From Botryllus schlosseri (Eukaryota): 64,000 nucleotides of DNA. The translations under genes and the position numbers were made by a program. This document shows positions 1 to 49,263 of this stretch, one piece after another. Within the stretch, counting starts at the first letter, position 1, and the number at the start of each line of letters is the position of its first letter. The notes under the pieces are model-generated. The model did no database searches, was not told where the DNA came from, and was given only the letters and a program-made list of their open reading frames with translations. The stretch spans positions 33,296,001-33,360,000 of the forward strand of contig CM119372.1 of NCBI GenBank assembly GCA_051294905.1, given 5' to 3'.

Positions 1-300
1 TCTTATGGGCCCGCTGGTGAGGTGCCGCGAAACTCGTGTTGGTGATGGCACCCTTTTGACCCCCCCTTCCGCTGGTGAGGTGCCATGTGTTCTTATGGGA
101 TCTCTGATGATGGTACCCTTTCGGGTATAGGCTTCGTCGGTGATGTGCCGCGAAAACTCGTGTTGGTGATGGTACCCTTTCAGACCACCTATCGCTCATG
201 ATGTGCCATAGTTTCTTACGGGATCTCTGGTGATGTGCTATTGGTTCTTATGGGATCTCTGGTGATGTGTCATTGTTTCTTATGGGATCTCTGGTGAAGT
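1..300 (+). repeat. Subterminal short repeats of the element end (CTTATGGGATCTCTGGTGATGTG-like), mirrored at 13455-13754
   Basis: Several copies of cttatgggatctctg(g/a)tgatg and two of gtgccgcgaaactcgtgttggtgatgg. Confidence 0.85.
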
Positions 301-3300
301 GGTGTTGAATATCAAGTATAGTAAACAGTGACGCCATTACCTAACGTGTATATTCAAAATTATTAAATATGACCGATTCGAGTTAATCCCAACGTTTACG
401 GTGAGTGCGACTTCAATATATCGTTATTCTTATGGGTGCGGCGGTGATTCGCCTGTCGTGCATATAGGATCTCTGATGACGCCACCCTTTCAGGTATACG
501 TTGTGTTGACATGTCGTACTTTCAACAAAAAAGACGTGAAAATAGTTTGCTAAATCTAGGAATTACTCACATGGTAATGTTTGAGTAATTAGATTACCCC
601 AGAGCCGGCGTAGACGGTGATTCGAATACCAACAATAGCCGCGTTCACATATTAACACTCCAAATAGGTGTGAAATAGTTTGCAAACCCTGCGATCGCTG
701 ACAAGATAATGTCTCGGACATAGCCATCTTTCGCGGCTTTGTGTTACAGGCATACCGATCGCTCACGTGGTGAAAATTTAGTAAGCAGTTTGTCACAGAA
801 CTCGATTTCACTCGTAAGATTTAATAAGTAACGAATGACAGAACCACCAGTGTCGGTAACTTGAATTGCGACAAATTGTCATTTATTTCTACTCTAACCC
901 TAATCCTTTGTGAAGTGTACGCTTATTCAAAAAGGTGTGAAATAATTTTAAAATCCTAGGACCGCTCACAGGGTAATGCTTCAGACATAGCGATCGCTCA
1001 TGATTTGGTGTTACAGACATACCGATCGCTCACAAGGTAATATTTCCGCAATAAGTTTGTCACAGAGACGGTGATTCGTAAACCAACAATTTGACACTTT
1101 CTGGTGGTCGCTATATGTTTTGACACTTTGGAACGTGGTTGACTTTAGTTGTATGATAAGAATAATGCGAATATTCAAGCAATGTGTCAATTTGTCAACT
1201 TGAAATGAAATTTACTACACAGCTCAAGTTGATTCGTATCTGAATGTGTTAATTCGGTACAATTCTAATTATTTCGAGAAATCCATTTACCGCGATCTGT
1301 TGATTCGAACGTAACCTGAATATTACTGACTCCAACTTCAATCGCGTCGAATTATTCACACATTCCACGCCGCTGTTTCACACCTATAGAATCAATACCA
1401 ACTAACTAAACAAGAATCAAGAAATCTCAAGTATACACATATAATAATTGTATTTATTTCTGAGAAATCAAACGCCTAACAAAAACACGCAACTTATCAT
1501 TTGGCCAACTCTAGCATTACCAAAAAATCTAGGTATTGTTGATTGAAAACCCTTGAGTCCTTATTATCAAAAATGTTATAGTGTGGCGTCGGAATCCATT
1601 CGCGAGATGTTCTATAGGTAAATTGAGGTAATCCAAAATGAAATATCTCGACTTTGACATAGTCTAAATTGAAATAAATTGACAAACATGACTACCAACT
1701 TTCCCGCAGCTCCATTTCAATATTATACGCACATTGATTTGAAACAAGTAATGATACCTTACAACTCTATTCGCGATCCGGCTTTTCGTTTGTCAAAGCG
1801 ACATTTTAACATCTTACCATACTCAAAAGAATTATTCACAACATCACCAAGTGTTAAAAATCTAGTTTTCACTTACTTGATTATATCACTGCAACTCACA
1901 AATTTGAATTAATTCATTCTGGTTGTATTCGTATGATCGGTCTTTTTTTTTATTCAATTGTAAAGGTCGTTACTGTTCTGAAGACAAAGTAAGCTATTTA
2001 CTAATCGACACATATACGACTTGACATAAACATATTGTATTTTGAGTATACGAGATTTGAATGTCTGAATAATAACCGAGAAATAATTTATCACAATAAA
2101 ATCCGTACATTACAGCGTAAAAGATGTTGGAATGTCAGCAACTCTGTACGGTCAACCCGATCAACTCGTCATGATCATTCCTGAAATCGACACAAACACG
2201 ACCACTGACTTGAGTTAACCACAAAACAGCATCAAGTTTTAAATCCACTTGTAGCTTACGGCTTATTCGAATGCTGGTTATGTTTTGTTGTAATTGAGTG
2301 TACGGAAATAGTATTACATCTCGACATCTTACCATCTTACCATATTCAAAGAGTCAACCACGAAAACATTGCCAAGTAAATCCGTTTGTAACTTACCCAA
2401 CCAACTCAACAGTATCCTTATGAAAAGTAGACAAGACTACGCGAGTAATCACCACAATCCGAAATCCATAGCAAGTTCAGTTGTATTCATAGTCCGCCAA
2501 CTCGTATTTTTTTATTCAGCTGTAAAAGTCGTTACTATTCTGTAACCTAAAGTAATTACTACTCGGCGCGCACAACTTGAGATTAACATAATATGTTTGA
2601 GTATACGAGGTTTGAAAGTTTGACCAACGTAGTTGAGAATTCATTTCTTACAAACGAACGCAGGCGTTATATTGAAAATTATAATGATGTAAACATAAGG
2701 TTCGACACATTGATTTGACATATGAGATTTTGTAATGCTCGACCATGACTTGATTATTAAATTATTTTGAATCGCCTGAAATAATTGTCGTCATCTAACC
2801 AGACTACTGAAAGTCGTTGCCATCACAAAAACAATTTGCATGACGTTTATTAAATGTGTCCTATAGTTAGAATTATTTGTAAAATACACACACAATCAGA
2901 GAAATTGAAAATCTTCCTAATTTCATTCGTCAAAGTAAATGTCATCACAATACTCAGTCACTAAAAGACCTTACTTGTACGGGATTGAAGCACCGATAAT
3001 TAACTAGCTAAACCGAACTCCAAAGAAATTTTACTCACTCGACGGATATGAAACAGCGTCGCTTAATCGGTCTATATCGTTTTTCTAAATGCAAATCATA
3101 TCCACCCAGCAGAAAACAATTTTCACTCGCTTGGTAATGAAACCGAAGTCTCCATTTGATATTTTATTTTTGGTCAAATACTTTGCAATGAACACATTTG
3201 AGTGGCTGAGCTTTACATCATCAAGCTGTCATCTGTAAATCAAGATTACATCCAACTTGTAACTGTATCGTTTAACTACCAGGTTGCATCAGTTTGCTAT

Positions 3301-5059
3301 TTTTGTCATTCAGTGACTGCTGAACATACCAAACGATACACATTCACTTACGAAATACTGTGTTGATCGTAATTTGCATCATCGTGATAATCGCAGTACA
3401 TTTGTTTCGAGTTCATAACAACCGACTACTTCTCTATGACATGACGAATTTTTGAAAAGTTAAGCTTAGAAGATTGGTGCATCTCGCGAAAAATAATATA
3501 CCACTCATATTGATACTGTTACTCCATTGACCGGTATTTTCAAACGAGTCGATTTTCAACCGTGCAAAATTTATTACTTGAGTTGTCCCGCTTACTATAT
3601 TTAAATGTAAACTCACCCGTCTTTCAACAACAAACAATGATAAAAAAGTACACAAGCAAACACAACAAGTTTTACTTTTGTTGGACACTAATTATTATTC
3701 CACGCATCTCATTTCACACTAAGTGTATATGAAAGATATTCATGGTACACGAATATATTCGCTCATGCTACGAACATACGCAATGATTGGTGACGCTTTC
3801 ACACTATTTCAATTTAGTGTAACAAAAACAACAACAACAATTTTCACTCTCTTGACTTATGAAAACAACAGACGAACCTTCATTCAATATTTTGTTTTTG
3901 TCAACTAGTTACTTCTTCATGAGACCCCCACTACTCTTACAAAAGTACGAAAGATATTTACATCACACAAAGTAATCAACTTTACTCGATATTCCCACAT
4001 TACGAAACTAAAGAATGGTTGGTTTGGCTCTACAAACTGTTTCGTTACCTCAAGACCTTTATTGTCTGAATGGTTGTTCATGTGTCTTAAGAACCGAATA
4101 GTTCAACACAGCACTAGTATTAACAGAAACACCAGAGTTGTTTACACAAAAGTTGTATGTGTGCAGTATACAAATATCATGTGTAAGTCCAGCACAATTG
4201 TGGTATCCATACGAGTTAAGTTAACACAATTTACGACACCGAGGTCGCCTCATCTTTCGTAAGACAACAAACCAAGGCTTCAGGATATGTCCATGTCATA
4301 ACAATAAATCAGCTACGCCAACAACAGAGTACATATGTTTTCTAGTTACGGTGCTTACATCTTACACTCAAATCGACCTACTTTGCTAACGAAAAGTGCT
4401 GAGTCATCACATGATTGTCCTCACAACAATACAACTAAAACATATTATCATACAAAATGATCGTTATAGTTTGCACACCAATGGTACATCGTACAAGTAA
4501 CAAGTCTCGAGGATTGAGTTATTGAAAAAACGTTAAAGTGTTTCTACGTCAAGTCGTTATGTTGACGAAAGCGTATATTGTAATATCATGATCGATTTGC
4601 ATTCGTTGGTCACAAACTGTTACTACTCTAAATAATTCTTTTTCACTCAAAGCCTACTTGTCACCATTCGTTTTCATCAAGTACGAGCTCAAGAAACTTA
4701 CTACGACATGAATTTTTATTTTTATGTTGTGTAAATAGGTAATAATTTTAGTAACACTATATCAACATCATCGAGTTGCGCGAATAGATTTACATGTGGT
4801 CTTGTGGTTTTAATCGAAGCATACAGCACGGTCTAATGTAGAGTCATCTCTATTGTACAGCAAGCCGGTAATCGAAATGCATGAATTAGCATTTGAACAA
4901 CGATCTTGTTTCGTCCTACCAAAAATAGTTTTACTGTCGCGATACTCTGCACAAGACGTGTAAATCCTTTTCACATTCGTAATAGTATACCAACGGATAC
5001 CGGCGACAACGTTTAACAATACCAACGACACTAAACATACGATACCTACCAAAGTAAAA

Positions 5060-5660
5060 TTACCATTTTCACCTAGAGGTCGGTCGTTACCCGAGTAGAA
5101 ATACCATTGTCCTTTGGAGATTTATCGTTTACCCAGTGTAACAAACCCCTTTTCCTTTGGAAATATATTTTTTCTCTGGGTAACAAACCTTTTTCACTTG
5201 GAAATATATTTTTTCTCTGGGTAACAAACCTTTTTCACTTGGAAATATATTTTTTCTCTGGTTAACAAACCTTTTTCACTTGGAAATATATTTTTTCTCT
5301 GGTTAACAAACCTTTTTCACTTGGAAATATATTTTTTCTCTGGGTAACAAACCTTTTTCACTTGGAAATATATTTTTTCCCCGGGTAACAAACCTTTTTC
5401 CCTGAGCAACAAACCATTTTCACTTGGTGGTCCGTCGTTTACCCGAGTAAAAATATCATTTTCTTTTGGAGATCCGGCGTTTACCCAGTGTAACAATACA
5501 TTTTCACTTGGAAAAATACTTTTACCTAGAGTAACTAATCATTTTCTCCTGGGTAGCAAACCCTTTTCGTCTGGAAACTATCATTTACCTGAGTACCAAT
5601 ACCGTTTTCACTTGGAAATCTATCTTTTCCCTGGGTAACAATACCATTTTCGTTTGGAAA
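5060..5660. repeat. 41/42-bp minisatellite inside the arm (mirror 8095-8695)
   Basis: Near-perfect 41-bp units start at 5161, 5202, 5243, 5284, 5325 and 5366 (aaatatattttttctctgggtaacaaacctttttcacttgg), flanked by diverged ~42-bp units. Confidence 0.95.
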
Positions 5661-6390
5661 ACTGACAACCACACCGGTCAATTTGATATTTTTTGTATAT
5701 TGTTACAACAGACAGCGACAAAATATACACCAACAACGACTCCGATACATTTGTCTAATCAAATATTCACTTGCTCTGATGCATCCCATCAAAATCATTG
5801 GTTACTCACATACAATAACAATGTGCTGTTGTACATCGACATGTATGTTTCGGAATTGGTGAATAAAGGGGTTTCCGATATGTCCGTGATGTCCGGGTTC
5901 GTGATTTGGATTTTCCAGAGTCAAAATGTCTGAATAAAACACCTCCTCGACTTTGGTAACTGGTTGATACACGGATAATGGTGTTTGGAAAACGGATGAA
6001 TTTATGTTCCCCATCGCGCTGACAACATCGGGTTACTTGTGAGTTTCCTCGGGTCTGTTTACTATATTGTGTCTTTACTGGTCAATACATGTCGCTCCAG
6101 TCAGCTGAAACCGGATCACTCATATGAGAAAGTATGTGGACCGGATCCGGATATTCACTCATGACCCAACGACCGATATTCAAGTAAACATGTTACAGAC
6201 CGTGTTTTGTCTCCATGAAAAATACCTATGCATACACCATCACATCAAGTACGTCACGATTGTTCACAAGTATTTGCGTAAACGAGGTGTATGTACAATG
6301 TGTCGATGCACAAACATCATGGGACACAAATTCACGTTCTCAAGTCTCATCATGCGCCGACTCTGTACATTCAATGTGGGCATAGACGAC

Positions 6391-7364
6391 ACACGACATG
6401 ATACAATGGATAGTGCATTATGCATACTGATATATTCTCAGTCAAATATGCGAACCATACACAACCATATACCCTGATTTTCGCTGAATATCCACAACAC
6501 CAACAAATCTGTACATTTCCTTTCCCTCGACCTCGACGATAGAGTTGTCGTCCCAATGTACCAATCGAGTGTATGGTTCATCAGGTGTAAAATCCAAATC
6601 AAATGTCACCAAGGTATCGTTTTTCATTTTCAATATTTCCACCGCTGCGTCTTGTCTGTGTCGTAAGACCACGGTGTGGGGCCAGAGGAATCTATGGACA
6701 GTTACGCGTAGTCCCATATTTACCCGTGGATATGGTCAGGTTACGACAACGTTTTCTCAATGGTCTGCGTGGGTGCACCGTTTCAATAGGTAACTGGATC
6801 AACTAGACCAAAAGTTTCCGACCGCGGTTTATGTTAACCTGTAGAGTTACGAGATAGCACCTTCTTGCGGTGTGATTAACACGAAATCAGCCTTCAGCTC
6901 GCAGAGACACACCTGGATTACATTATCAAATCGTAATTAAACTCGAGATTCACACACACACACAGTCCCTGTTTACGATTTCAATCCGGAGTCACTGCTC
7001 GCGATGTTTGTCTGTAGTCGTTGTGTGGGAGTAGCAACATCGGGCATATTCATCACCTGCAAGATTGATAACGATGGTGATCGCCAAATACATTAAACCA
7101 GGTGAAACACTGCGGTCTCAGCAAAAAGTTCGCAGGTTAGGACGAACAATACGTGGAGGGATTGAGCGAGTTACGCAACCCGATTATGTCGAAGTCTGGA
7201 TCACGATACAAGTCTACCTGAGAATCCGAACAATCTTGCGAAATCAAGGTGTGAACCCGTGAAAGGGCTGTACTCGTGTGAGATTTATTTTTCACAAGTT
7301 GGGTGGAGGTCGGTTCATACTAAGACCATGTTACGTCAAAATATGACCGCTTGCCTGTCTCCAA
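6391..7364. other. 974-bp unique spacer (loop) of the foldback element
   Basis: Not mirrored. Contains minus-strand ORF 6442..6717, whose frame runs on with stops into the left arm. Confidence 0.9.
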
Positions 7365-10300
7365 GTCGTCTATGCCCACATTGAATGTACAGAGTCGGCG
7401 CATGATGAGACTTGAGAACGTGAGTTTGTGTCCCATGATGTTTGTGCATCGACACATTGTACATACACCTCGTTTACGCAAATACTTGTGAACAATCGTG
7501 ACGTACTTGATGTGATGGTGTATGCATAGGTATTTTTCATGGAGACAAAACACGGTCTGTAACATGTTTACTTGAATATCGGTCGTTGGGTCATGAGTGA
7601 ATATCCGGATCCGGTCCACATACTTTCTCATATTAGTGATCCGGTTTCAGCTGACTGGAGCGACATGTATTGACCAGTAAAGACACAATATAGTAAACAG
7701 ACCCGAGGAAACTCACAAGTAACCCGATGTTGTCAGCGCGATGGGGAACATAAATTCATCCGTTTTCCAAACACCATTATCCGTGTATCAACCAGTTACC
7801 AAAGTCGAGGAGGTGTTTTATTCAGACATTTTGACTCTGGAAAATCCAAAGCACGAACCCGGACATCACGGACATATCGGAAACCCCTTTATTCACCAAT
7901 TCCGAAACATACATGTCGATGTACAACAGCACATTGTTATTGTATGTGAGTAACCAATGATTTTGATGGGATGCATCAGAGCAAGTGAATATTTGATTAG
8001 ACAAATGTATCGGAGTCGTTGTTGGTGTATATTTTGTCGCTGTCTGTTGTAACAATATACAAAAAATATCAAATTGACCGGTGTGGTTGTCAGTTTTCCA
8101 AACGAAAATGGTATTGTTACCCAGGGAAAAGATAGATTTCCAAGTGAAAACGGTATTGGTACTCAGGTAAATGATAGTTTCCAGACGAAAAGGGTTTGCT
8201 ACCCAGGAGAAAATGATTAGTTACTCTAGGTAAAAGTATTTTTCCAAGTGAAAATGTATTGTTACACTGGGTAAACGCCGGATCTCCAAAAGAAAATGAT
8301 ATTTTTACTCGGGTAAACGACGGACCACCAAGTGAAAATGGTTTGTTGCTCAGGGAAAAAGGTTTGTTACCCGGGGAAAAAATATATTTCCAAGTGAAAA
8401 AGGTTTGTTACCCAGAGAAAAAATATATTTCCAAGTGAAAAAGGTTTGTTAACCAGAGAAAAAATATATTTCCAAGTGAAAAAGGTTTGTTAACCAGAGA
8501 AAAAATATATTTCCAAGTGAAAAAGGTTTGTTACCCAGAGAAAAAATATATTTCCAAGTGAAAAAGGTTTGTTACCCAGAGAAAAAATATATTTCCAAAG
8601 GAAAAGGGGTTTGTTACACTGGGTAAACGATAAATCTCCAAAGGACAATGGTATTTCTACTCGGGTAACGACCGACCTCTAGGTGAAAATGGTAATTTTA
8701 CTTTGGTAGGTATCGTATGTTTAGTGTCGTTGGTATTGTTAAACGTTGTCGCCGGTATCCGTTGGTATACTATTACGAATGTGAAAAGGATTTACACGTC
8801 TTGTGCAGAGTATCGCGACAGTAAAACTATTTTTGGTAGGACGAAACAAGATCGTTGTTCAAATGCTAATTCATGCATTTCGATTACCGGCTTGCTGTAC
8901 AATAGAGATGACTCTACATTAGACCGTGCTGTATGCTTCGATTAAAACCACAAGACCACATGTAAATCTATTCGCGCAACTCGATGATGTTGATATAGTG
9001 TTACTAAAATTATTACCTATTTACACAACATAAAAATAAAAATTCATGTCGTAGTAAGTTTCTTGAGCTCGTACTTGATGAAAACGAATGGTGACAAGTA
9101 GGCTTTGAGTGAAAAAGAATTATTTAGAGTAGTAACAGTTTGTGACCAACGAATGCAAATCGATCATGATATTACAATATACGCTTTCGTCAACATAACG
9201 ACTTGACGTAGAAACACTTTAACGTTTTTTCAATAACTCAATCCTCGAGACTTGTTACTTGTACGATGTACCATTGGTGTGCAAACTATAACGATCATTT
9301 TGTATGATAATATGTTTTAGTTGTATTGTTGTGAGGACAATCATGTGATGACTCAGCACTTTTCGTTAGCAAAGTAGGTCGATTTGAGTGTAAGATGTAA
9401 GCACCGTAACTAGAAAACATATGTACTCTGTTGTTGGCGTAGCTGATTTATTGTTATGACATGGACATATCCTGAAGCCTTGGTTTGTTGTCTTACGAAA
9501 GATGAGGCGACCTCGGTGTCGTAAATTGTGTTAACTTAACTCGTATGGATACCACAATTGTGCTGGACTTACACATGATATTTGTATACTGCACACATAC
9601 AACTTTTGTGTAAACAACTCTGGTGTTTCTGTTAATACTAGTGCTGTGTTGAACTATTCGGTTCTTAAGACACATGAACAACCATTCAGACAATAAAGGT
9701 CTTGAGGTAACGAAACAGTTTGTAGAGCCAAACCAACCATTCTTTAGTTTCGTAATGTGGGAATATCGAGTAAAGTTGATTACTTTGTGTGATGTAAATA
9801 TCTTTCGTACTTTTGTAAGAGTAGTGGGGGTCTCATGAAGAAGTAACTAGTTGACAAAAACAAAATATTGAATGAAGGTTCGTCTGTTGTTTTCATAAGT
9901 CAAGAGAGTGAAAATTGTTGTTGTTGTTTTTGTTACACTAAATTGAAATAGTGTGAAAGCGTCACCAATCATTGCGTATGTTCGTAGCATGAGCGAATAT
10001 ATTCGTGTACCATGAATATCTTTCATATACACTTAGTGTGAAATGAGATGCGTGGAATAATAATTAGTGTCCAACAAAAGTAAAACTTGTTGTGTTTGCT
10101 TGTGTACTTTTTTATCATTGTTTGTTGTTGAAAGACGGGTGAGTTTACATTTAAATATAGTAAGCGGGACAACTCAAGTAATAAATTTTGCACGGTTGAA
10201 AATCGACTCGTTTGAAAATACCGGTCAATGGAGTAACAGTATCAATATGAGTGGTATATTATTTTTCGCGAGATGCACCAATCTTCTAAGCTTAACTTTT

Positions 10301-13300
10301 CAAAAATTCGTCATGTCATAGAGAAGTAGTCGGTTGTTATGAACTCGAAACAAATGTACTGCGATTATCACGATGATGCAAATTACGATCAACACAGTAT
10401 TTCGTAAGTGAATGTGTATCGTTTGGTATGTTCAGCAGTCACTGAATGACAAAAATAGCAAACTGATGCAACCTGGTAGTTAAACGATACAGTTACAAGT
10501 TGGATGTAATCTTGATTTACAGATGACAGCTTGATGATGTAAAGCTCAGCCACTCAAATGTGTTCATTGCAAAGTATTTGACCAAAAATAAAATATCAAA
10601 TGGAGACTTCGGTTTCATTACCAAGCGAGTGAAAATTGTTTTCTGCTGGGTGGATATGATTTGCATTTAGAAAAACGATATAGACCGATTAAGCGACGCT
10701 GTTTCATATCCGTCGAGTGAGTAAAATTTCTTTGGAGTTCGGTTTAGCTAGTTAATTATCGGTGCTTCAATCCCGTACAAGTAAGGTCTTTTAGTGACTG
10801 AGTATTGTGATGACATTTACTTTGACGAATGAAATTAGGAAGATTTTCAATTTCTCTGATTGTGTGTGTATTTTACAAATAATTCTAACTATAGGACACA
10901 TTTAATAAACGTCATGCAAATTGTTTTTGTGATGGCAACGACTTTCAGTAGTCTGGTTAGATGACGACAATTATTTCAGGCGATTCAAAATAATTTAATA
11001 ATCAAGTCATGGTCGAGCATTACAAAATCTCATATGTCAAATCAATGTGTCGAACCTTATGTTTACATCATTATAATTTTCAATATAACGCCTGCGTTCG
11101 TTTGTAAGAAATGAATTCTCAACTACGTTGGTCAAACTTTCAAACCTCGTATACTCAAACATATTATGTTAATCTCAAGTTGTGCGCGCCGAGTAGTAAT
11201 TACTTTAGGTTACAGAATAGTAACGACTTTTACAGCTGAATAAAAAAATACGAGTTGGCGGACTATGAATACAACTGAACTTGCTATGGATTTCGGATTG
11301 TGGTGATTACTCGCGTAGTCTTGTCTACTTTTCATAAGGATACTGTTGAGTTGGTTGGGTAAGTTACAAACGGATTTACTTGGCAATGTTTTCGTGGTTG
11401 ACTCTTTGAATATGGTAAGATGGTAAGATGTCGAGATGTAATACTATTTCCGTACACTCAATTACAACAAAACATAACCAGCATTCGAATAAGCCGTAAG
11501 CTACAAGTGGATTTAAAACTTGATGCTGTTTTGTGGTTAACTCAAGTCAGTGGTCGTGTTTGTGTCGATTTCAGGAATGATCATGACGAGTTGATCGGGT
11601 TGACCGTACAGAGTTGCTGACATTCCAACATCTTTTACGCTGTAATGTACGGATTTTATTGTGATAAATTATTTCTCGGTTATTATTCAGACATTCAAAT
11701 CTCGTATACTCAAAATACAATATGTTTATGTCAAGTCGTATATGTGTCGATTAGTAAATAGCTTACTTTGTCTTCAGAACAGTAACGACCTTTACAATTG
11801 AATAAAAAAAAAGACCGATCATACGAATACAACCAGAATGAATTAATTCAAATTTGTGAGTTGCAGTGATATAATCAAGTAAGTGAAAACTAGATTTTTA
11901 ACACTTGGTGATGTTGTGAATAATTCTTTTGAGTATGGTAAGATGTTAAAATGTCGCTTTGACAAACGAAAAGCCGGATCGCGAATAGAGTTGTAAGGTA
12001 TCATTACTTGTTTCAAATCAATGTGCGTATAATATTGAAATGGAGCTGCGGGAAAGTTGGTAGTCATGTTTGTCAATTTATTTCAATTTAGACTATGTCA
12101 AAGTCGAGATATTTCATTTTGGATTACCTCAATTTACCTATAGAACATCTCGCGAATGGATTCCGACGCCACACTATAACATTTTTGATAATAAGGACTC
12201 AAGGGTTTTCAATCAACAATACCTAGATTTTTTGGTAATGCTAGAGTTGGCCAAATGATAAGTTGCGTGTTTTTGTTAGGCGTTTGATTTCTCAGAAATA
12301 AATACAATTATTATATGTGTATACTTGAGATTTCTTGATTCTTGTTTAGTTAGTTGGTATTGATTCTATAGGTGTGAAACAGCGGCGTGGAATGTGTGAA
12401 TAATTCGACGCGATTGAAGTTGGAGTCAGTAATATTCAGGTTACGTTCGAATCAACAGATCGCGGTAAATGGATTTCTCGAAATAATTAGAATTGTACCG
12501 AATTAACACATTCAGATACGAATCAACTTGAGCTGTGTAGTAAATTTCATTTCAAGTTGACAAATTGACACATTGCTTGAATATTCGCATTATTCTTATC
12601 ATACAACTAAAGTCAACCACGTTCCAAAGTGTCAAAACATATAGCGACCACCAGAAAGTGTCAAATTGTTGGTTTACGAATCACCGTCTCTGTGACAAAC
12701 TTATTGCGGAAATATTACCTTGTGAGCGATCGGTATGTCTGTAACACCAAATCATGAGCGATCGCTATGTCTGAAGCATTACCCTGTGAGCGGTCCTAGG
12801 ATTTTAAAATTATTTCACACCTTTTTGAATAAGCGTACACTTCACAAAGGATTAGGGTTAGAGTAGAAATAAATGACAATTTGTCGCAATTCAAGTTACC
12901 GACACTGGTGGTTCTGTCATTCGTTACTTATTAAATCTTACGAGTGAAATCGAGTTCTGTGACAAACTGCTTACTAAATTTTCACCACGTGAGCGATCGG
13001 TATGCCTGTAACACAAAGCCGCGAAAGATGGCTATGTCCGAGACATTATCTTGTCAGCGATCGCAGGGTTTGCAAACTATTTCACACCTATTTGGAGTGT
13101 TAATATGTGAACGCGGCTATTGTTGGTATTCGAATCACCGTCTACGCCGGCTCTGGGGTAATCTAATTACTCAAACATTACCATGTGAGTAATTCCTAGA
13201 TTTAGCAAACTATTTTCACGTCTTTTTTGTTGAAAGTACGACATGTCAACACAACGTATACCTGAAAGGGTGGCGTCATCAGAGATCCTATATGCACGAC

Positions 13301-13754
13301 AGGCGAATCACCGCCGCACCCATAAGAATAACGATATATTGAAGTCGCACTCACCGTAAACGTTGGGATTAACTCGAATCGGTCATATTTAATAATTTTG
13401 AATATACACGTTAGGTAATGGCGTCACTGTTTACTATACTTGATATTCAACACCACTTCACCAGAGATCCCATAAGAAACAATGACACATCACCAGAGAT
13501 CCCATAAGAACCAATAGCACATCACCAGAGATCCCGTAAGAAACTATGGCACATCATGAGCGATAGGTGGTCTGAAAGGGTACCATCACCAACACGAGTT
13601 TTCGCGGCACATCACCGACGAAGCCTATACCCGAAAGGGTACCATCATCAGAGATCCCATAAGAACACATGGCACCTCACCAGCGGAAGGAGGGGTCAAA
13701 AGGGTGCCATCACCAACACGAGTTTCGCGGCACCTCACCAGCGGGCCCATAAGA
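7365..13754. repeat. Right arm of ~6.4-kb inverted repeat
   Basis: Reverse complement of 1-6390 with no net indel. The only differences I found are at 5904/7851, 6121/7634 and 6331/7424. Confidence 0.98.
11100..12260 (+). pseudogene. Tandem paralogous decayed small genes in the arm (mirror ~1500-2655)
   Basis: Blocks at 11141 and 11696 align (ctcgtatactcaaa...agtaacgac.tttaca..tgaataaaaaa) and end RLQNSNDFYS* / CLQNSNDLYN*. A second shared block tttga.tatggtaagatg lies at 11405 and 11928. Confidence 0.5.
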
Positions 13755-13790
13755 CACCATTGCAGGTCACGAGCGATCTACTATACTACT

Positions 13791-14940
13791 CACGTGGACC
13801 CTTGATACTCGACTTTGATAACGTACTTACTACTGCAATTATTGGGTCACAGCTTTAGAACTTCGTACAGTGTTAGATGCCATCATGAAGATATGTAGTA
13901 CGAAATTTTGTTATCCCTCGCCGTATAGGACACAATCAAAATCTACACATACTAATACTGTTTTTCTTGAAAAATCAGTTATGCGGTTGGCTGAAGGTCA
14001 AATGATTGCATCTTACACTGAACCAATTTTTGAGGGTGTGACTCGGTGATCAGGATAGTAATTTCGTTATCATAGTCGAGTATATCAAGTACATCGCTGA
14101 CCTGCCATCTTGCCTACTGCATGACAGATTTTTCACAAAAGCCGAAATTGCTGTAATGCTATATGTAGGCTTTGAATGTGTTTTATTCCTGGGTGAATAA
14201 CAAAATATCGTATTATATATTCTGATGGAGACATCTAGCACTGTATCGAGTTTTAAGGCTGTGACTCAATTATTACGGTAGCAATTTCGTTTTCAAAGTC
14301 GCGTATATCAGGGTGGCGCTGATTTGGCATTCAGCCTGCCGAATAGCAGATTTTATTGCAAAAGCCAATATTGGTATGTGTACAATTTAAATGTATTTTA
14401 TACGGCTATGGATAATAAAATTTCGTATTGTATATCTTGATGAAGGAATCTAACACTGTTTCAAGGGTGTGACTCTATAATTACAGTAGTAAGTACGTTA
14501 TCAAATTCGAGTATCCAGGGTCTGCGTGTGCTGATTTGGCATTGCGCCTACCGCATAAATGAATTTCCGCAAAATTTGATATTGGTATATGTGAATTTTG
14601 AAATTGTTTCATACCGAGATGGATGACGAAATTTGGCATGGTATATCTTGGCTGTGTTATGCAGCTTCGCAGTAGGTTTTAGTATCGTCAGTCAATGATT
14701 AGCATAGTAATTCCGTTATCAAAATCGACAATATATCGGTGCGCGCTGATTTACTCGATACTCGACTTCGACACCGAAATTACGACGCTAGTCATAAAGC
14801 CGTAGTCTTGAAACTTGGTACAGCGCAAGATGACAGCATCAAAATATACCAGACGAAATTATGTCGCCCAACTCGATATGGAACATAGTTAAAATCAACG
14901 AAGAGCAATAGCGACTTTGCCTTTAATTACTGTTGCAGAC
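13791..14940. repeat. Diverged ~210-220-bp satellite-like repeat with units in both orientations
   Basis: Motif gtgactc...gtagtaa.t.cgttatcaaa.tcgagtat recurs near 14040, 14260, 14470 and 14690. Reverse-complement copies lie at ~13797 and ~14757. Confidence 0.75.
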
Positions 14941-16201
14941 TGATCGACATTAACTAAGTCGTCAAAGGTATATGGGCGTGACAGTCACGTGATTTTCCAA
15001 GTGTCCACACCACCTTTGAGTACACGCTGGTTTAATAATGACGTATACGAAAGTCAATTGCATGGTCAATTGGTCATGGTCACACTCGACCGAACGGACG
15101 CTTTTTGATGCAGTTTTCTCGGAGCTTCCCAAGTGCAACAGCGAGAGAATCCACAACCGACTTATTTCGAGAGTTCAGCCTGGAAGACTTCGCTATGCAT
15201 AACAACTACACTGTTATAGGCAACAAGGTTAGTACGATCGGTATTTGTGTTGACGCGTAATTTACGTTAGAATTCTAGAACCCATCTACAGCCAGTAGTA
15301 GCCAACGTTGGGGTCGTCACGTGTCGTCTAAATCTACTCACGGAGACGAATTGTAACATGAAGTGCAATTGCATAAATTCTGTGCTGCCGTGTAACTATA
15401 AGTCGATGTCAAACCACAGCGAAACCACAGCCAAATTAGTCAAGGATTTACAACGCATATACATTCACACTGTTGAGGGTAATAAAAGGATAAATGTTGC
15501 AAATTCTTTACATGCATGTATAATTGAAGCTCTCTTTTTCTAATTAGCGTGTAACCCGATTTTAATGATGTATCGCTCACGAATATTTATCATGTAGCCT
15601 ATTTATCTATTAGATGCGGAGATGGTATATAATGAAGTTGGTGTACTTTTTCGGGGTACTCAAATAGATTTTGATTCCACTCACGTGTTTATATTTTAAA
15701 ACTACTTTAACTCCTACTTCACAGTTGTTTAGGCAAAACTACATATTTTTGTCATTCAGATTTATAAAAAAGTAGAAAATAATTTTGGAATCAATTTTCA
15801 TCCTTTTTATGAATGGAATTTTCGCTAAAACAGCGTTAAATAGCCGTGGAGTCACAATAACTATATATATATACATATCCTATTTGTAGTGACATTGGTC
15901 ACTTAGCAATATTCGTGAAGATACATCTTCCAAAATTGAAACTAATCACCTGCGATTACCCACAAGAAGTAGTCGACATCTGAGCCAAATCTACTTGTTG
16001 AATATACTTACTTGAGTATTCTTCAGAAACTTCCATTTTCTACAGCCCCTTCAAGGGGTTTTGACATGTCTTAAAAATAGGTTCTTCTATACTTCCATTT
16101 AAGCACAAATTTACGGCGTGAATCTACTTCAATTCTACTTTTACGCTTACTATTTTGATCACATCTGATTAGTTGTGCTTCATACATTCCAGTGGTAGCA
16201 C

Positions 16202-29066: not shown

Positions 29067-30947
29067 CAGTGCTTTTCAACCTTTTTGAGCTCCATTCGCA
29101 CTTAAAAAAAAAAAATTCATTCGCACAAACTAATCGAAAATTGTTATACAAAATGGAAATGAAGCTACTTAACAACATTTTGTTCAGATGTGCAACAAAT
29201 TGACTACACGATTTGCTTTCAACTATTTCACTAAAACCCTTCCCGGCCAAACAATGTTGTTATGGGAATTTGTACAAGAACGGCTACTAGTGCTTGGATG
29301 GCCAGGTCTTAAAATCTGTACTGCACTCCTATCCAAAATACAGCGTATTTTTTTGCGAGTGAAAAATGCTTGCTGGCAAAAATCGTTTTTGCGAGCTGAC
29401 ACAAAGGTCCCGGAGGCTTCAATTTGTCGAAAGGATGAAAAACCCACATGTTTGTGTTGAGGCGTTTGCCTGATGTCTTTGGAACACAAGGTGCAAAACG
29501 ATCAAGGAGAGTAGGCACATTAAAGCTCGCTACCTGATGATACGTTGCTCCAACTTCTGTCTCGCGAGTATATGAAAACAGCAAATTGACTCACGATACT
29601 GTGTGCTCTGCTCTTTAGCTCAATCTAACTTGAGAATTCATAACAGTTTAATAACGGTAAAGCAGCTTTTAGACTACCACCAAAATCTAAGTTTTTGTGG
29701 CATCTCGCAACCCAAGCCTCACCCATGAAAAGGAATTCATTTTTAATATTCCAGTTATATGCTACGATTTTATGGGCATGTATGATATACAGAACGCGTA
29801 CACCACAATTCTACCCAACACATCTCTACAAAACATGTCTGACGCACGTGATTTCAAATTAGGGCGAATTAAATTCCTCTGCGTATCGCAGTCGAACTAC
29901 TGTCTACTCAGATTGCAAGAACGGGACTATTCCGTGCCGACAACGGAGCATATCCATCTCGAAAGGTTTGGCCATCGAGCATAGGTCATTTTTAGACCGA
30001 GGTTTTGTCGCCGCTTATGTTTTTAGCACTGCATTTTATCAGCGGTTTGTTCGCCGAAATTTTACGTCTTCATGTGCCCCGACGCAGAAGGGGTTGGCCT
30101 CGAAATGAATGAGCCTCATTGGCCCGAACTCGCTCGTTGCACACCCCTACACTACTTCATCCCAACGCTATTGACCATGTTTTCCAGAAAAAACAGTCGG
30201 ACAAATTTTATGATGAATTCTCATGATAAAGCCATATTTTCTGGGTGTCTCGCTCATTGGCGACAGTACCCAATACAGTGACCTTGGATATGTAAAAACT
30301 ATCGTAGGATTTTTTGCAATAAATTCATTAAATAATACATACATATTAACAGATAGCTCTGGCACCGTGTCGACCCAAAATTATACCCTTTGCGGTCCAT
30401 ACTTTAATAACCTTTGAAGGGGTAAAAATTTGCGTTACTGTAACTTGCAAATGTGAGTCTGTAATGATGGTATTTATTGCTATCCTTGTGCCTCGTGCTA
30501 TAATCGAACAGTTATTACGAAAATATGATGATTGTTTAGCGAAAGAAAGGAGAAAGTCAATTTTACGTAATTTTTCAGCCTGTCGCAGGCTCAGACGGGC
30601 TGATAGGTTGTATGTCTGCCACTACGCCAGCTTCCAAACTAGGCTTTTGGTTACGTGATAATTATAATGAGAGAATATTAATTCAATACAGCTTGTGAGA
30701 GCTACGATTAGTCGTGCGACGTATTGAGTTTTTACAATTGCGTCGCAACTACAACAGTTATACTGATCTTAAATTTCTTATTAGGTTTATTTGAATTATT
30801 CCACGTCAGAAAAATTAACAATTCTTCACGATTTTCATTCGCACTTGATCCGGATTTTCATTCGCACCATTCGCACCACTCGTCATTCGCACTGCAATTT
30901 TTTTCATTCGCACATGTGCGAACCGTCACACAGGTTGAAAAGCACTG
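29067..30947. mobile_element. Non-autonomous hAT element X (TGCGAA subterminal repeats), copy 1
   Basis: TIR CAGTGCTTTTCAACCT; TSD CTATACTT/CTCTACTT. Confidence 0.92.
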
Positions 30948-31443
30948 CTCTACTTTATGCTAATATAAGAACATATTGTTTTCCCCCCATTTGATCTCCC
31001 TCAAATTCGGACCTTCGGCGCGCGGCAGGTCCATTTCAATCCTTACCTATCTTTACGACCGCTTCGCGCTCCCGGACATTCAGAATATATGCTGTCTCTA
31101 TTATAGCTCTAATGTTCGAAGTCATATAAAACTAAATGAGATACAAATTTGTTATTACTTAATAAAATATGACGATTTCGTCCTTAATCGTAGGATTATT
31201 CACCCCTGGTTCGGTGCAGATGCAGTGTTGGGATGACTCGAGTCACCTTTTTCGTATGACTTGACTTGACTCGAGTCACTTTGCTAAAATGACTTGACTC
31301 GACTTGACTCGGCGTATCAGAAATGTAGATTGACTCGTCACTCGGAGCAAAATTCACGAGTCAATTTCAAGTCATCAAGTAATCGGTGTCGATGAAAATC
31401 ACTGTATCTTGCATATGTTCGGATTGTTCGCGATACGCTAGTG

Positions 31444-33682
31444 CAGTGCTTTTCAACCTGTGTGACGGTTCGCACTTGTGCGAATGAAAAAAATTGCAGT
31501 GCGAATGACGAAGGTAGTGCGAACAGTGCGAATGAAAATCCGGATCAAGTGCGAATGAAAATCGTGATTAATTGTTAACTTTTCTGACTCGGAATAATTC
31601 AAATAAACCTAAACGGAAATTTAGGATCAGTGTAACTTTTGTAGTTGAGACGCAATTGTAAAAACTTTATACGACGTAGCTCTTACAAGCCGTAGTGAAT
31701 TAATATTCTCACACTATAATTATTACGTAACCAAAAGCCTGGTTTGGAAGCTGGTGTAGTGGAAACAGAGATCTCTACAATCTCTATAGTGGCAGACATA
31801 CAGTATATCAGCCCTTCAGAGCCTGCGACAGGATGGCAAAATGATGTCAGATTGACTGTCTGCTTTCTTTCGCTAAACAATCATCATATTTTCGTAATAA
31901 CTGTTCGATTAGCGCGAGGTACGAGGATGGTAGTAAATACCATCATTACAGACTCACCTTTGCAAGTTTACTGTGACGCAAATTTTCACCCCTTGATGGG
32001 GTAAAGTATAATTCTCGGTCGACACGGTGCCAGAGCTATCTGTTAACAATATGTATCTAATATTTAATGAATTTATTGTAAAAAATCCTGCGATCGTTTT
32101 CATATATCCAAGGTCACTGTGTTGGGTACTGAAGCCAATAAACGAGACGCACATTAAATGTGGCTTTATCATGAGAATTCATGGTCAGATTTGTCCGACT
32201 TTTTTTTTCTTCTGGAAAACATGGTCGAAGACCGTTGGGATGGACTTGTGTAGGGGTGTGCAACGAGCGAGTTCAGGCCTATCAGACTCATTCATTTCGA
32301 GGCCAACCCCTCTGCGTCGGGGTACATAAAGCCGTAAAGTTTTGGCGAACAAACCGCTGATAAAATGCGGTTCCAAAAACATATGCGGCGACAAAACCTC
32401 GGTCTAAAAATGATCGATACTGGATGGCCTAACCTTTCGAGATGGGTTGGATATGCTCCGTTTTCGGCACGGAATAGTCGCGTTCTTGCAATCTGAGTAG
32501 ACAGTAGTACAACTGCAAAACGCATAGGAATTTAATTCGTCCTAATTTGAAATCGCGTGCGTCAGACATGTGTTGTAAGCTGTGTTGGTTAGAATTGTGA
32601 TGCGCGCGTTCTGTATGTCACTATGTCATACATGCCCGTAACATCGTAGCATACAACTGTGATATTAAAAATAAATTCCTTTTCATGGGTGAGGCTCGGG
32701 TCGCGAGATGCCACAAAAACTCGGATTTTGGTGGTATAGTCTTAAAGCTGATTTACCCTTATTAAACTGTTATGAATCCTCAAGTTAGATTGGGTTAAAG
32801 AGTAGCCTAGAACACACAGTATCATCAAGTTTGTTTGTTTTTGGGGTATTTATGGTGTTTGTCGACTAGGCCTACTATGGTCATTTACACCAGACCCATA
32901 TTCTGCTTATTTTCCGTAACTGCCGGCTTATAGCACGGCCCTCCTCTAGGCCTTTGTAAGACACCGCTGACGCGGATGAGGCGGCGAGGAGGAGCCTAGG
33001 TAAACCTCTAACACTTAGGTATCGGAATTCGGAAGTCGACCTCGGTCGGACTCGAACCCGCAGCCATTGGTGTGGCAGACACAGTATTATGAGTTATTTG
33101 CTCTTCTCAAAAACTTGCGAGACAGTATAGTTGGACCAACGTATCATCAGGTAGCGAGCTCTAATATGCCTAGGCCTACTCTCCTTGATCATTTTGCACC
33201 TTATGCTCCAATGACATAAGGCAAAAGCCTCAACACAAACATGTAGGTTTTTCATCCTTTCGACAAACTGGAGCCTCGCGGGACCTTTAATTGTGTCAGC
33301 TCTAACTCTCACTCTCACTCTCTGTCTCACTTCACTCATGAAAAATACGCTGTATTTTGGATAGGAGTGCAGAACAGATCTTAAGACCTGGCCATCCAAG
33401 CACTAGTAAACGTTCTTGTACAATACCCAACAACTTGTTTTGCCAAGAACGGTTTCAGTGAAATAATTTGAAGCAAAACGAGCGAGAAAAGTTGCCTTTT
33501 TAATGATACATTGATAGCTTAAGCTACATAGCTATCCAATTTGTTGCACATCTGAACAAAATGTTGTTAAGTGAGCCTATCTTCATCTTCTTTTTGCATA
33601 AAAATTTTCAATTAGTTTGTGCGAATGAAATTTATTTTACAAAAAAAGTGCGAATGGAGATCAAAAAGGTTGAAAAGCACTG
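31444..33682. mobile_element. hAT element X copy 2, inverted relative to copy 1 and nested
   Basis: Same TIR; perfect TSD CGCTAGTG; diverged reverse complement of 29067-30947. Confidence 0.93.
32831..33078 (-). mobile_element. tRNA-SINE family 1 inserted in element X copy 2
   Basis: Absent from copy 1; flanked by direct repeat ACACAGTAT(C/T)AT; B-box GGTTCGAGTCC on the minus strand. Confidence 0.85.
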
Positions 33683-36600
33683 CGCTAGTGTAACCCGCGA
33701 GAGCGACCAATCACTAAATGATCGTGCGTTTTAGTGAGCCTCGATTGTCTCACAAATAAATTGACCGCAAACGAAGTGATCGAAGCTTACAGCCTACGTT
33801 GTCGTAAACTAGTATAGTAAAGTAATTCAATAGCAAAATGTATATTTCTGTACTCTGTTCTTACCTTAACCAAACCTATTGTTTTATTGAAATCGAATAT
33901 TGTTTATTACAGTTCTCAACCATTGGCGCATAAGGCTAGAATTGTATCATATCAATTTGTAAATGGATAATGTATTGCATCTTATCAATTTGATTCTCTA
34001 TTCTCTTGTTTGGCTGATAACTATAAACTGAGGCTATGCTCACGCAGGTTAGCAATTATACGTATATGTGAGCGATACAGCGCCTTCTTGCGTGTATATT
34101 CAACTCTATATTCGTTCATCGGCTCAAAATCAATGACCACTCAATCTGTATTTCCGACACCTATCAAAATGCAATGACGTAATTATGCCTCATACTTCCA
34201 AAAGGCAACTTGACTTGAATTGTGACTTGACTCGTGACTTGACTTGACTTGACTTGACTCGACTTGACTCGAGTCATCTCCAAAATTCGAATGACTTGAC
34301 TTGACTCGAGTCGCCTCCGAAAATCGATTGACTTGACTTGACTCGAGTCAAAATGTGCAATGACTCGAAATGACTCGTGACTTGAAGTTAGTGACTTGAT
34401 CCCATCACTGTTCAGATGTCATATCATTATAGCATACTACGCTGTTGTCACGACAAGTCAGGCGATCTCTTAGGGATGCTAGGCAAGCTTTTATTTTTGA
34501 CTTATACTCTATCATCTCATGACATATGATATTCAGAAAGATCTGCTGTGAAAAGAGCCCATATGTTATGCTCGTACCCTTGCATCCTGGGATTTTAATC
34601 ATGATCGAGGAGATATATGAAGCGGTGAGAACAGGCGATATCTGATCGAACATAACAGTGTTATTGGCATACTAATTGCCGATTATCGCTAATTAGCAGA
34701 TGTAAATAATCATGTCCCTGTGAGTACAGCTAAAGCTAATAAGGATTGCAGTAATGTTAATATTTACGGCACAGCAAATCAATAATGCAGCAGTATGCAT
34801 ATAAATATTCGGATCGCGTTATATATGGTATTCGTATAACAATTATTGCGAATATTAACCCCAAAAGATTATGCCAAATGGGTCAATGTAACGCGTAATC
34901 TGTCTATATATCCTTCTCGACTAGCAGTATAATCCCGTAAAATGACACATAGAATTAAGCAGCCGAGATGACAACGTATTGATCAAGAAATCATGCAATT
35001 TAGATGCTAATCTTGGTTAAAGCCGGTAAAAGGATTAGGAAAATAAATTCACCTTCTGTCCTAAGCCGATTACAATGGATCTGTATTTGCACAAAATTAG
35101 GGTTGACGTATTAACCATCCCCGACAATGCCGCCGCGCTTTTATAGAGCACTGCTGGTTCCTAAACCTGTTTGACTCATCACCCCAAAAAGCTCGAAGAG
35201 ATCAGCAACATAGCAGTTATACTTTCCCGTAGTAGGCTACTCATTCAGATTGCGTTTGCTTATTTCACGAACTCATACAGTTTCATTTGCGTACTATTTC
35301 TATTTCAGCAGCGTTAGATGATGAAGTTTTAATTTTGCGTCTCTAGTATAGTCAAGTGAAGAGCAGTTTTTGAATGTAGTTCAGCAAACGCGTTGCTACG
35401 AAGTTGAGAGAATTAATAAACAAGTTGAATTGGTGTTAGAGCGTGACGAATTTACATGATTCGTTACTTTTCACCTCTCGCGGGCTGGGATGAATCAAGC
35501 ATCGCGCTGCTTTGCTATCAACATTCATCGATTGTAAATTGAATTTAACAAGAAATGAAACAAGTAATTGAATATAATTGACTGAACGTTTTGAAATTTT
35601 TGCACATTTAGCAATATCCCACAATTTCGGAACCACTGATCTAGGGGGAGATGTGGTGCCGATGGATCAAAAATAGCAAAATGCTCTCTGGCCCAAATAT
35701 CTTTAGCCGAAAACAGCAGACCTGTTGCTCGCTCAATACTTTGATCCCAGCTCCAACTACAGCGGATACATACATGAATATCCACATTTAAAAAATATCT
35801 ATGAACGATCAAAATTTGTTGGTGAAACGTATCGTAAAATCGGACAGTTAATCTGTAGGTATGTTTCTCTTATTGCTTGATTAGTTAGTCCAACTATTTT
35901 GCTTGATTTGGCTGTGGTATCATCGGCCTCTACTCTGAAAATTTTGTAATTGAAGTGAAAAAGTCCACTCCTGGATGGTGTTGGATAAAAATATGTGCTT
36001 TTATATAACTTGAAACAAGGCCTACACTTCCCATCAAACTGATTGCTTGTTTGTTCGTGTTGAAGGTTACTAAGAATAATGTATACCTCGTTCGAAATTC
36101 CCTTTACCCCCCCCCCCCCCCCAAATGAAATAAATCTGTCACAGACCCCATATCTCGCGCAGGTATTAGTTATTTGCATGTGAAGAAGGATTCTGACAGC
36201 ATGCAATAGTAACCAAATTCACGGAGTGTAATCATGGGATTAATTATAATGATTACCAATATTAATATTCGATAATAGTTATCATTGAGAATTTTCCTAG
36301 TAATTTCGGCCCCAGTGTGTCATCGGTACAACAACTCCCATGCATGGCATTTGGCATGACTCCTCGCTTAGGAAAATACATGTATTCCCTGGGAGTTGAC
36401 TACGCTCTCCAGTATATCTTTATTTGTCGAAACCTTCCAGTCATATATAGTAACTAATAATGTCGGGAAAATTATTCGAGTAGTCCAATCCAAATCGAGT
36501 ATTAATGGTCGATAGTTAATGGTCCACTGACCCCAAATTAGAAACACCTGCTGTGACTGATAATGTTATCCCACACCTCGATCAAATATAATTTTTGTAC

Positions 36601-47072: not shown

Positions 47073-47978
47073 CAGTGTTGGGATGACTCGAGTCATGACT
47101 TGACTCGAGTCGGACTCGAGTCACCTTTTTCGCATGACTTGACTTGACTCGAGGCACTTTGTTAAAATGACTTGACTTGACTTGACTCGGCGTATCAGAA
47201 ATGTGGATTGACTCGTGACTCGGAGCAAAATTCACGAGTCAATTTCAAGTCATCAAGAAATCGGTTTCGATAAAAACACTGTATCTTGCATATGTTGGGA
47301 TTGTTCGCGAAACGCTGGTGTAACCCGTGAGGGCGACCAATCATTCAATTACCGTGCGTTTCACTGAGCCTCGATAGTTCTCTCACAAATAAATTGACCT
47401 AGTAGTAAAGTAATAGAATAGCAAAATGTCTATTTCTGTTCTCTGTTCTTACCTTAACCAAATCTCTTGTTTTATTGAAATTAAAGTCGAATGTAGTTTA
47501 TATTGTCCTCGACCATTGGCGCAGGCTCGAATGGTATCATATCTATTTGTATATGGGTAATATATTGCATCTTATCAGTTCGTTTCTCTATTCTCTATTT
47601 TGGCTGGTAACTATAAACTGAGGCTATGCAACTACGTCGTTTAACAGTTCTACGTATAGCCTATATGTGAGCGATACAGCGCCTTCTTGCGTGTATATTT
47701 AACTCTATATTCGATCATCGGTTCGGAATCAATGACCACTCAAACTGTATTTCAGACAGCTAGCAAATTGCAATGACGTAATTATGCCTCATATACGTAG
47801 CCTACTTCGAGAAGGCAACTTGACTTGAAATATGACTTGACTCGTGACTTGACTTGACTTGACTCGACTTGACTCGAGTCACCTCCAAAAATCGAGTGAC
47901 TTGATTTGACTCGAGTCAAAATGTGCAATGACTCGAAAGGACTCGTGACTCGAAGGTAGTGACTTGATCCCAACACTG
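47073..47978. mobile_element. hAT MITE, GACTT/GACTC family (intact)
   Basis: TIR CAGTGTTGGGAT; perfect TSD CCTGAAGG. Confidence 0.95.
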
Positions 47979-48098
47979 CCTGAAGGTGCGACCAATTATA
48001 AAACTGTAAAATTTAAATAATTTACAGAGTTGGTCAGATTAATCATTGGTGACACATATGACACTAAAGCACTAATTATGCCGTATATGTGTCCTCAG

Positions 48099-49035
48099 CA
48101 GTGTTGGGATCAAGTCACTACCTTCGAGTCACGAGTCATTTCGAGTCATTGCACATTTTGACTCGAGTCAAGTCAAGTCAATCGATTTTCGAAGGTGACT
48201 CGAGTCACGTCAAGTCACTCGATTTTTGGAGGTGACTCGAGTCAAGTCGAGTCGATTCAAGTCAAGTCAAGTCAAGTCAAGTCAAGTCACGAGTCGAGTC
48301 ACAATTCCAGTCAAGTTGCCTTTTCGAAGTATGAGACATATCTACGTCATTGCATTTTGCTGGCTGTCTGAAATACAGATTGAGTGGTCATTGATTCTGA
48401 ACCAATGAACGAATATAGACTTAAATATACATGCAAGAAGGCGCTGTTTCGCTCACATATAGCCCCAGCCTAGCCATAGCCTCCGTTTATAGTTACCAGC
48501 CAAAATAGAGAATAGAGACTCAAATTGCTTAGATGCAATACATTACCCATTTACAAATTGATATGATACAATTCGAGCCTGCGCCAAATATTTGGGAATA
48601 TATAAACTAACTATATTCGAATTAAATTTCAATAAAACAAGAGGTTTGGTTAAGGTATAAGAACAGAGAACATAAATAGAACTATATTATACTAGTGTAC
48701 GATAACGTAAGCTGAAAGCTTCGATCACTTCGTTTGCGGTCAATTTATTTGTGAGAGAAGAATGGAAGCTCAGTAAAACGCGCGATCATTGCATGATTGG
48801 TCGCTCTCTCGGGTTACACCAGCGTTTCGCGAACCATCCGACCATATGCAAGATAGTGATTTTTATCGACACCGATTACTTGATGACTTGAAATTGACTC
48901 GTGAATTTTGCTCCGAGTCACGAGTCAATCCACATTTCTGATACGCCGAGTCAAGTCAAGTCAAGTCATTTTAGCAATGTGACTCGAGTCAAGTCAAGTC
49001 ATACGAAAAAGGTGACTTGAGTCATCCCAACACTG
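48099..49035. mobile_element. hAT MITE, GACTT/GACTC family (inverted copy)
   Basis: TIR CAGTGTTGGGAT; perfect TSD GTCCTCAG. Confidence 0.95.
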
Positions 49036-49263
49036 GTCCTCAGACATCAAAATAATCGATCTAAAAGGGGAAAATTTTATATCTGGAGATACTCAAAAAA
49101 TTAGATTGGAATAATGTCCCGCAGACGTTGTTCCTCAATCTCTAGGGATAGCTGCAAAATTACAAAATTTATCTTCGTCACTAACTTACAATGACTGAAC
49201 GCGCCACAGATATGTCCAATTCACGGAATTTTATCATGATACAGTGATACAGAACTTACAAGG

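Follow-up and report, generated by a model that had tools for sequence, protein, structure and literature searches.

The closest described relatives of the element presented here, a long palindrome at the start of a 64,000-nt stretch of the Botryllus schlosseri genome (CM119372.1:33,296,001-33,360,000, forward strand, in the 495-Mb assembly GCA_051294905.1; this whole stretch is called the window), include the Maverick/Polinton elements. Their non-autonomous derivatives, treated by Kapitonov and Jurka in 2006, are reportedly internal deletion products with ordinary terminal inverted repeats (TIRs). Foldback transposons, such as Drosophila FB and sea urchin TU, combine long inverted arms, tandem subrepeats and a loop, with a target site duplication (TSD) of 8-9 bp and a cut-and-paste transposase partner. 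Panhandle repair is known for adenovirus ends, and a racket model has been put forward for Polintons. For Mavericks/Polintons of the adintovirus type, Barreat and Katzourakis (2021; PMC8097293) give (AGT)2//(ACT)2 ends, 6-bp TSDs, sizes of 12.7-24.6 kb and inverted repeats of 46-1,447 bp, and tie the repeated end motif to jumping-back initiation and the constrained size to capsid stability. Snap-back genomes of adeno-associated virus (AAV) appear in PMC8235507 as rearranged parental sequence made anew in infections. Drosophila FB is mentioned in PMC6431247.

The window element is one young copy of an old, high-copy family of enzyme-less palindromes with Polinton ends. We consider it probable (about 0.7) that this family is an old, gene-bearing satellite lineage for which autonomous Polintons resident in this genome likely provide replication, integration and perhaps packaging; mobilisation in trans by such helpers, and packaging, are what we infer. 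With the left flank added, the element measures 13,826 bp and starts 36 bp left of window base 1, where an earlier note made from the window letters had predicted its left end and a CACGTG duplication. Self-BLAST pairs positions 1-6390 with 13754-7365 at 99.94% identity and without gaps. Each arm is 6,426 bp long, the two differ at four positions (64/13691, 5904/7851, 6121/7634 and 6331/7424), the single-copy loop between them is 974 bp, and 93% of the element is palindromic. The arms, the size of the loop, the subterminal repeats and the Polinton-type ends had all been read correctly in that note: 32-bp subterminal repeats are found, together with internal repeats of 41-42 bp, and the ends are AGTAGT, with AGTAGTATAGTAG as terminal sequence at both and CACGTG bordering each. 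Left flank, TSD and right flank, joined, follow an inverted repeat copy (window 14322-15029) without loss of register, which indicates that exactly 6 bp were duplicated on insertion, again as proposed. A continuation of the inversion into the host flank was looked for; the symmetry stops at the palindromic TSD, and the host DNA beyond it is not part of the inversion. The features of the element, in window coordinates, are the following.

1-6390, plus strand: left arm, whose first 36 bp lie left of base 1 (total 6,426 bp), from self-BLAST and the flank, with no coding sign.
7365-13790, minus strand: right arm, reverse complement of the left one with four mismatches.
6391-7364, no strand: single-copy loop of 974 bp, whose junction is kept across the subfamily.
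6442-6717, minus strand: 91-aa gene (open reading frame 6445-6717, stop codon 6442-6444), conserved, under purifying selection, predicted all-beta and of no known family.
13778-13790, minus strand: right terminus 5'-AGTAGTATAGTAG, in which hypervariable bases come after the (AGT)2 end motif of Mavericks.
13791-13796, plus strand: TSD CACGTG of 6 bp, with its twin just left of the window.
13314-13790, minus strand: terminal 0.48 kb common to the autonomous Polinton TIR at 91-94% (mirror 1-441).
1297-1581, plus strand: old patch, 68-71% like the helper sequence just inside the helper left TIR, mirrored in the right arm.
199-301, plus strand: subterminal 32-bp tandem repeats (mirror 13454-13556).
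5138-5660, plus strand: 41-42-bp tandem arrays (mirror 8095-8617).

Concerning coding capacity, the arms hold no open reading frame (ORF) above 132 aa. Codon periodicity was absent from the arm windows and confined to the loop ORF, and hidden arm genes were rejected on this ground. Helper ORFs used as tblastn queries gave no match in the window copy, and no replication, integration or capsid gene was found in it; the earlier claim that such genes are lacking thus stands, although the conserved 91-aa loop ORF had been missed. Folding the loop as DNA added nothing. Like the non-autonomous Polinton derivatives named above, the element has helper ends and TSD and no enzymes, but it is a full-size palindrome, whereas copy E (L020:506-3807), 3.3 kb long with the same ends, 368-bp TIRs and satellite-arm pieces inside, is an ordinary short derivative. 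Set against autonomous Mavericks/Polintons, as far as the account introduced above describes them, it shares the end motif ((AGT)2 or (AG)3), the 6-bp TSD, a length within range and a constrained size. It departs from them in its 6,426-bp inverted repeat (tens to ~1,500 bp being usual), in its 93% palindromy, in the lack of the core genes pPolB, integrase, ATPase, protease and capsid, and in its one unrelated small gene. Snap-back genomes such as those of AAV (PMC8235507) are likewise self-complementary and depend on a helper; their two tips carry one and the same end, and asymmetric forms have a single-stranded loop. In contrast to them, the palindrome forms a heritable lineage integrated in the genome, most of its arm sequence does not match the helper, it has a selected gene and ~700 copies, and instead of rearranged helper sequence it shows helper matches over ~0.5 kb and two patches. 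From this comparison the element appears to work like a snap-back defective genome turned heritable satellite, and is neither an autonomous Polinton nor a rearranged helper.

A genome search with the terminal 300 bp, as the earlier note had advised, returned other copies, with partner matches 13-15 kb apart on many contigs. A degenerate loop motif had 700 exact matches in the assembly (control 0), the loop motif of the window copy's subfamily 201, and the terminal motif 1,926 (control 2); if all were full length, the family would make up ~2% of the genome (700 x 13.7 kb). We fetched 49 regions, 19 chosen by their ends and 30 by the loop gene, set three aside (gene copies zero or two) and oriented the remaining 46 on their single loop gene. 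A matching 6-bp TSD, the helper's TSD length, borders 32 of these 46, as expected of separate insertions of a non-autonomous satellite. An inverted repeat is present in 45/46, with arms of at least 5.5 kb in 34 of the 45. The two arms of one copy are a median of 1 event/kb apart; between copies the arms are mosaics, the best other copy being at most 90% identical to the window copy, and subfamilies are 56-66% identical in the loop gene. The span is 13.0-14.6 kb in 25 of the 32 copies with a TSD, the other seven (one-arm indels or broken symmetry) being dropped. Some copies are unusual. Three nested end pairs, each with its own matching end variant, lie at G000:C1:16768420-16810257, elements having inserted into elements. 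At L044:6834-7867 the arms reach past the loop gene, so that it is present twice, in inverted orientation, around a loop of 206 bp, and a 21.5-kb copy (L041-L043) has the loop and inner arm duplicated, with a 100-N gap, and may be partly an assembly effect. Target sites often contain CG, commonly ACGT, and an insertion preference is possible.

The autonomous partner that had been postulated is present in the same genome as a family of integrase- and pPolB-bearing Polintons with the same ends. Copy H, found by its terminal match, is a conventional Polinton with 742-bp TIRs, and its integrase has ~80 near-full matches at 93-100% identity among 114 scored. The pPolB ORF, 1,131-1,300 aa long, is intact in 8/8 fetched helper copies, seven of which show both ends, TSDs and TIRs of 0.55-0.85 kb at a length of 14.8-16.9 kb. 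The one helper copy scanned with Pfam yielded DNA_pol_B_2, rve and chromo domains and a weak Pox_A32. Pfam gave no match for capsid and protease in this family; the genes so labelled are presumably these, judging by their order, and the labels also draw on an ORF that is 33% identical and has a weak jelly-roll match (E-value 0.015). End variants are common to helpers and palindromes, and the palindromes thus share their ends with a coexisting gene-bearing family, which they outnumber by ~8:1, a ratio that is only suggestive of interference with the helper. In copies at L012-L013 and L053-L054 both arms carry an intact 214-aa OB-fold-like ORF from the helper right end.

The loop ORF starts at a conserved ATG (window 6717-6445) and its frame is the sole open one of six across 14 full-length copies; beyond these, two copies are damaged (C shortened, Q without a start) and five matches are cut by stretch borders. 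The ratio of nonsynonymous to synonymous substitution rates is 0.34 between subfamilies and 0.21-0.34 within them (the same 14 copies), and the frame is stop-free in 149 of the best 150 genomic matches, a set biased to good matches. The gene is under purifying selection. Searches in Pfam, PDB sequences, the Atlas and a 1.8-billion-protein profile search gave no outside family, and a metagenome scan found no relative; outside relatives are few, mostly on contigs of 0.7-1.2 kb, and a motif of homologue P0004 has no match in the assembly. The predicted fold is all-beta (predicted local distance difference test 71 for the best model, 34-39 for the other four). Its top structural rows are alpha-crystallin/small heat-shock protein domains, at Z 5.8, below the Z 8 noise mark, with a root mean square deviation of 4.2 over 67 aligned residues; the Foldseek match is weak (E-value 0.006, template modelling score 0.34), and Pfam gave no support for an alpha-crystallin/CS (HSP20-like) assignment. 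Two other candidates were considered. A tblastn hint at a dead packaging-ATPase paralogue (27% over 79 aa, E-value 0.008) was not upheld: with one ATPase as the partner the probability dropped to 0.6%, a 17-sequence profile gave 0.4% across 10 columns, and this paralogy was rejected. An OB fold, or kinship with the helper OB-like ORF, found no support, with a probability of 0.3% and no OB rows in the fold lists.

A search with the most distant homologue of the loop gene gave inverted pairs and led to a second family. All eight inspected members (L131-L142, L147-L150) are palindromic, with arms 99.5-100% identical, and 7/8 have AGTAGT ends of another type, 6-bp TSDs and a copy of the small gene in each arm, with Bcl-2 next to it in some. 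Outside the gene, the family matches the window copy only in short, weak stretches. The end motif of this family has 257 matches in the assembly and also occurs on a Polinton with an intact 1,293-aa pPolB, from which the loop gene is absent. Conversely, pPolB is missing from all five capsid- and integrase-bearing elements chosen for having the loop gene; its position, ahead of a BIR gene, is taken by Bcl-2 and the small gene. None of 12 pPolB-bearing Polinton stretches (some without an end) has the loop gene. The idea that it is an accessory gene of autonomous Polintons was dropped on these counts. Since the gene was seen with both end types and, among the elements inspected, only where pPolB is lacking, it is a marker of polymerase-less dependents in two groups of helper; the tree splits the two end groups with strong support. 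Polintons with capsid, integrase, ATPase and protease, in which Bcl-2 and the 91-aa gene replace pPolB, were seen at L143-L146, L151-L153 and L156-L159. Judged by gene content, such polymerase-less Polintons would be a second kind of dependent element. The 91-aa protein likely benefits polymerase-less dependents as a whole, through helper exploitation or host-cell survival. Bcl-2 and IAP are listed as adintovirus accessory genes in PMC8502044. What this analysis adds is that one gene links both palindrome families and the polymerase-less Polintons.

The satellite could be propagated as follows. The protein-primed polymerase of the helper would begin copying the freed linear DNA from one or the other of its AGTAGT ends, and each displaced strand would snap back into a 6.4-kb stem and a 1-kb loop, rebuilding a duplex origin. 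One arm would then be resynthesised or repaired on the other, which would put new end variants and captured helper pieces on both; the helper integrase would insert the product, and the arms would diverge by drift once inserted. Capsid filling is the likely reason why sizes vary so little (13.0-14.6 kb; helper 15-17 kb), the arms acting as stuffer.

Several observations bear on how and when the arms become equal. Pieces of the helper left or right end (0.1-1.4 kb, at 82-95%) stand on both arms in all eight fully viewed copies, while 13 indels above 100 bp, in 10 copies, are confined to one arm, 9/13 with TSD-like overlaps of 5-12 bp and mostly transposon-like ends. Bases 7-12 of the ends occur in 23 versions among the first 100 termini listed, yet are identical in 35 of 39 pairs by an eye count. 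The junction of arm and loop is constant in most copies, and where shifted (by 8-27 bases, in both directions; J and L093, N and P) it moves at in-register microhomologies. Isolated arm mismatches gather near the loop: across 34 copies (11 whose arms are short or broken were excluded), the inner 500 bp hold 37 of 205, where 15.9 would be expected (p 1e-6), and the excess persists without CpG sites (p 4e-4, inner 1 kb). Inherited left-right asymmetries were rejected, both alleles occurring in other copies for only 14/205 mismatches. Arms thus seem to be equalised during mobilisation, as captured pieces are two-armed, later insertions one-armed and end bases paired, and the pattern fits arm-on-arm correction while the strand is single and snapped back, prior to insertion, and subsequent drift. 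Such correction could proceed by end resection and fill-in, by mismatch repair or by fold-back priming near the loop. These tests of when the arms become equal are a further addition.

A number of points weigh against replication of the satellite as a hairpin by its helper. The evidence consists of integrated copies, and an extrachromosomal form, a particle or a new insertion was not observed. Most of the arm sequence has no detectable source. Two further copies show a helper piece on one side, the other arm lying outside the fetched stretch, 4/39 end pairs are unequal, and mismatch density climbs again toward the outer ends; the unequal pairs and the rise at the tips imply that equalising is imperfect or that copies recombine later. 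As for a size constraint, all 32 copies with a TSD range over 12.8-18.0 kb, the ~16-kb fetches centred on the loop select against long copies, and the second family spans 12.3-16.6 kb. Finally, RNA reads number no more than 30-199 per run, out of 13-22 million records, and may be read-through; the run index named no RNA holder. Single-cell reads lean toward the gene sense, on the assumption of a sense second mate, and accumulate beside A-rich tracts of the arm, for which internal priming or read-through is possible.

The mismatch excess by the loop would also suit a different account, in which Polinton integrase merely cuts and pastes the element and chromosomal gene conversion, as in sex-chromosome palindromes, keeps the arms alike without hairpin replication; conversion could fade near the spacer, and the unequal ends inside a matching TSD in J and L113 suggest exchange after insertion. 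However, one-arm transposon insertions persist, and their copies tend to have more substitutions; mosaic exchange with helper ends is symmetric in 8/8; and the hypervariable bases beside the end motif fit slippage at protein-primed initiation, as in the jumping-back scheme outlined in PMC8097293. We therefore regard gene conversion as an unlikely explanation of the arms. A recent copy-back genome derived from one end of a resident helper, which is what the earlier note had favoured, fares worse and would now be very unlikely. Over the terminal 0.48 kb the identity to the helper TIR is indeed 91-94%, two patches further in correspond to the helper left end, and an ancient origin by copy-back is plausible. 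Yet only the terminal ~0.5 kb of the window copy and the two short patches (at 68-79% identity) match the helper, over 85% of the arm finds no counterpart there, and none of the helper ORFs matches; the loop gene is missing from the 12 pPolB-bearing stretches and common to a family with other ends. Copy-back as a recent event is thus largely refuted by sequence comparison, and a defective one-off is at odds with an old family of ~700 copies whose subfamilies have diverged in a selected gene.

The long arms with tandem subrepeats around a loop recall foldback elements, and a foldback transposon of another superfamily, Polinton-like at its tips only, was considered. Unlike the FB/TU type, the element has Polinton ends, a TSD of 6 bp rather than 8-9 bp, longer and far more uniform arms, and, in place of a transposase partner, a same-ended, virus-like Polinton helper. 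Hundreds of TIR bases, the end variants and the 6-bp TSD are common to it and to integrase- and pPolB-bearing Polintons, and this origin is highly improbable. An assembly fold-back artefact or a segmental inverted duplication, which the 99.94% arm identity of a palindrome known from assembled sequence might suggest, can practically be dismissed, as the inversion ends at the TSD with flanks giving a clean empty site, many loci show differing TSDs, one-arm insertions and a conserved loop, and contigs of an independent run contain the loop at high depth.

Returning to the helper-dependent satellite, a bolder and more tentative proposal, to which we give somewhat less than even odds, is that these elements are distinct hairpin satellite viruses of Polintons: capsid-sized and self-complementary, with their own lineage and a satellite-specific protein confined to polymerase-less elements, and switching helper by capturing the new helper's end onto both arms. 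Polinton replication has been modelled and hardly observed, and hundreds of young copies with 6-kb arms record the process; the agreement of their hypervariable ends, the symmetry of captured pieces and the gradient of mismatches speak for an intermediate made of one folded strand, with arm-to-arm correction. Polintons would then have parasites of their own, which outnumber them, and the family places hundreds of long palindromes in the chromosomes. We found no description of such elements in the literature, with Repbase and the supplements of PMC8097293 outside the search and a prior library entry possible. In short-read assemblies and in repeat pipelines, such palindromes would end up collapsed or mislabelled, and they may thus be overlooked elsewhere.

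Elsewhere in the window, older foldback-like inverted repeats (82-84%) lie at 29067-34410 and 47096-49400, their tandem ends rich in GACTCGAGTCA, a motif likewise present at the end of an insertion in copy L109. At 62918-63371, far from the contig end, two inverted telomere-like TTAGGG/TTAGG arrays are separated by ~60 bp.

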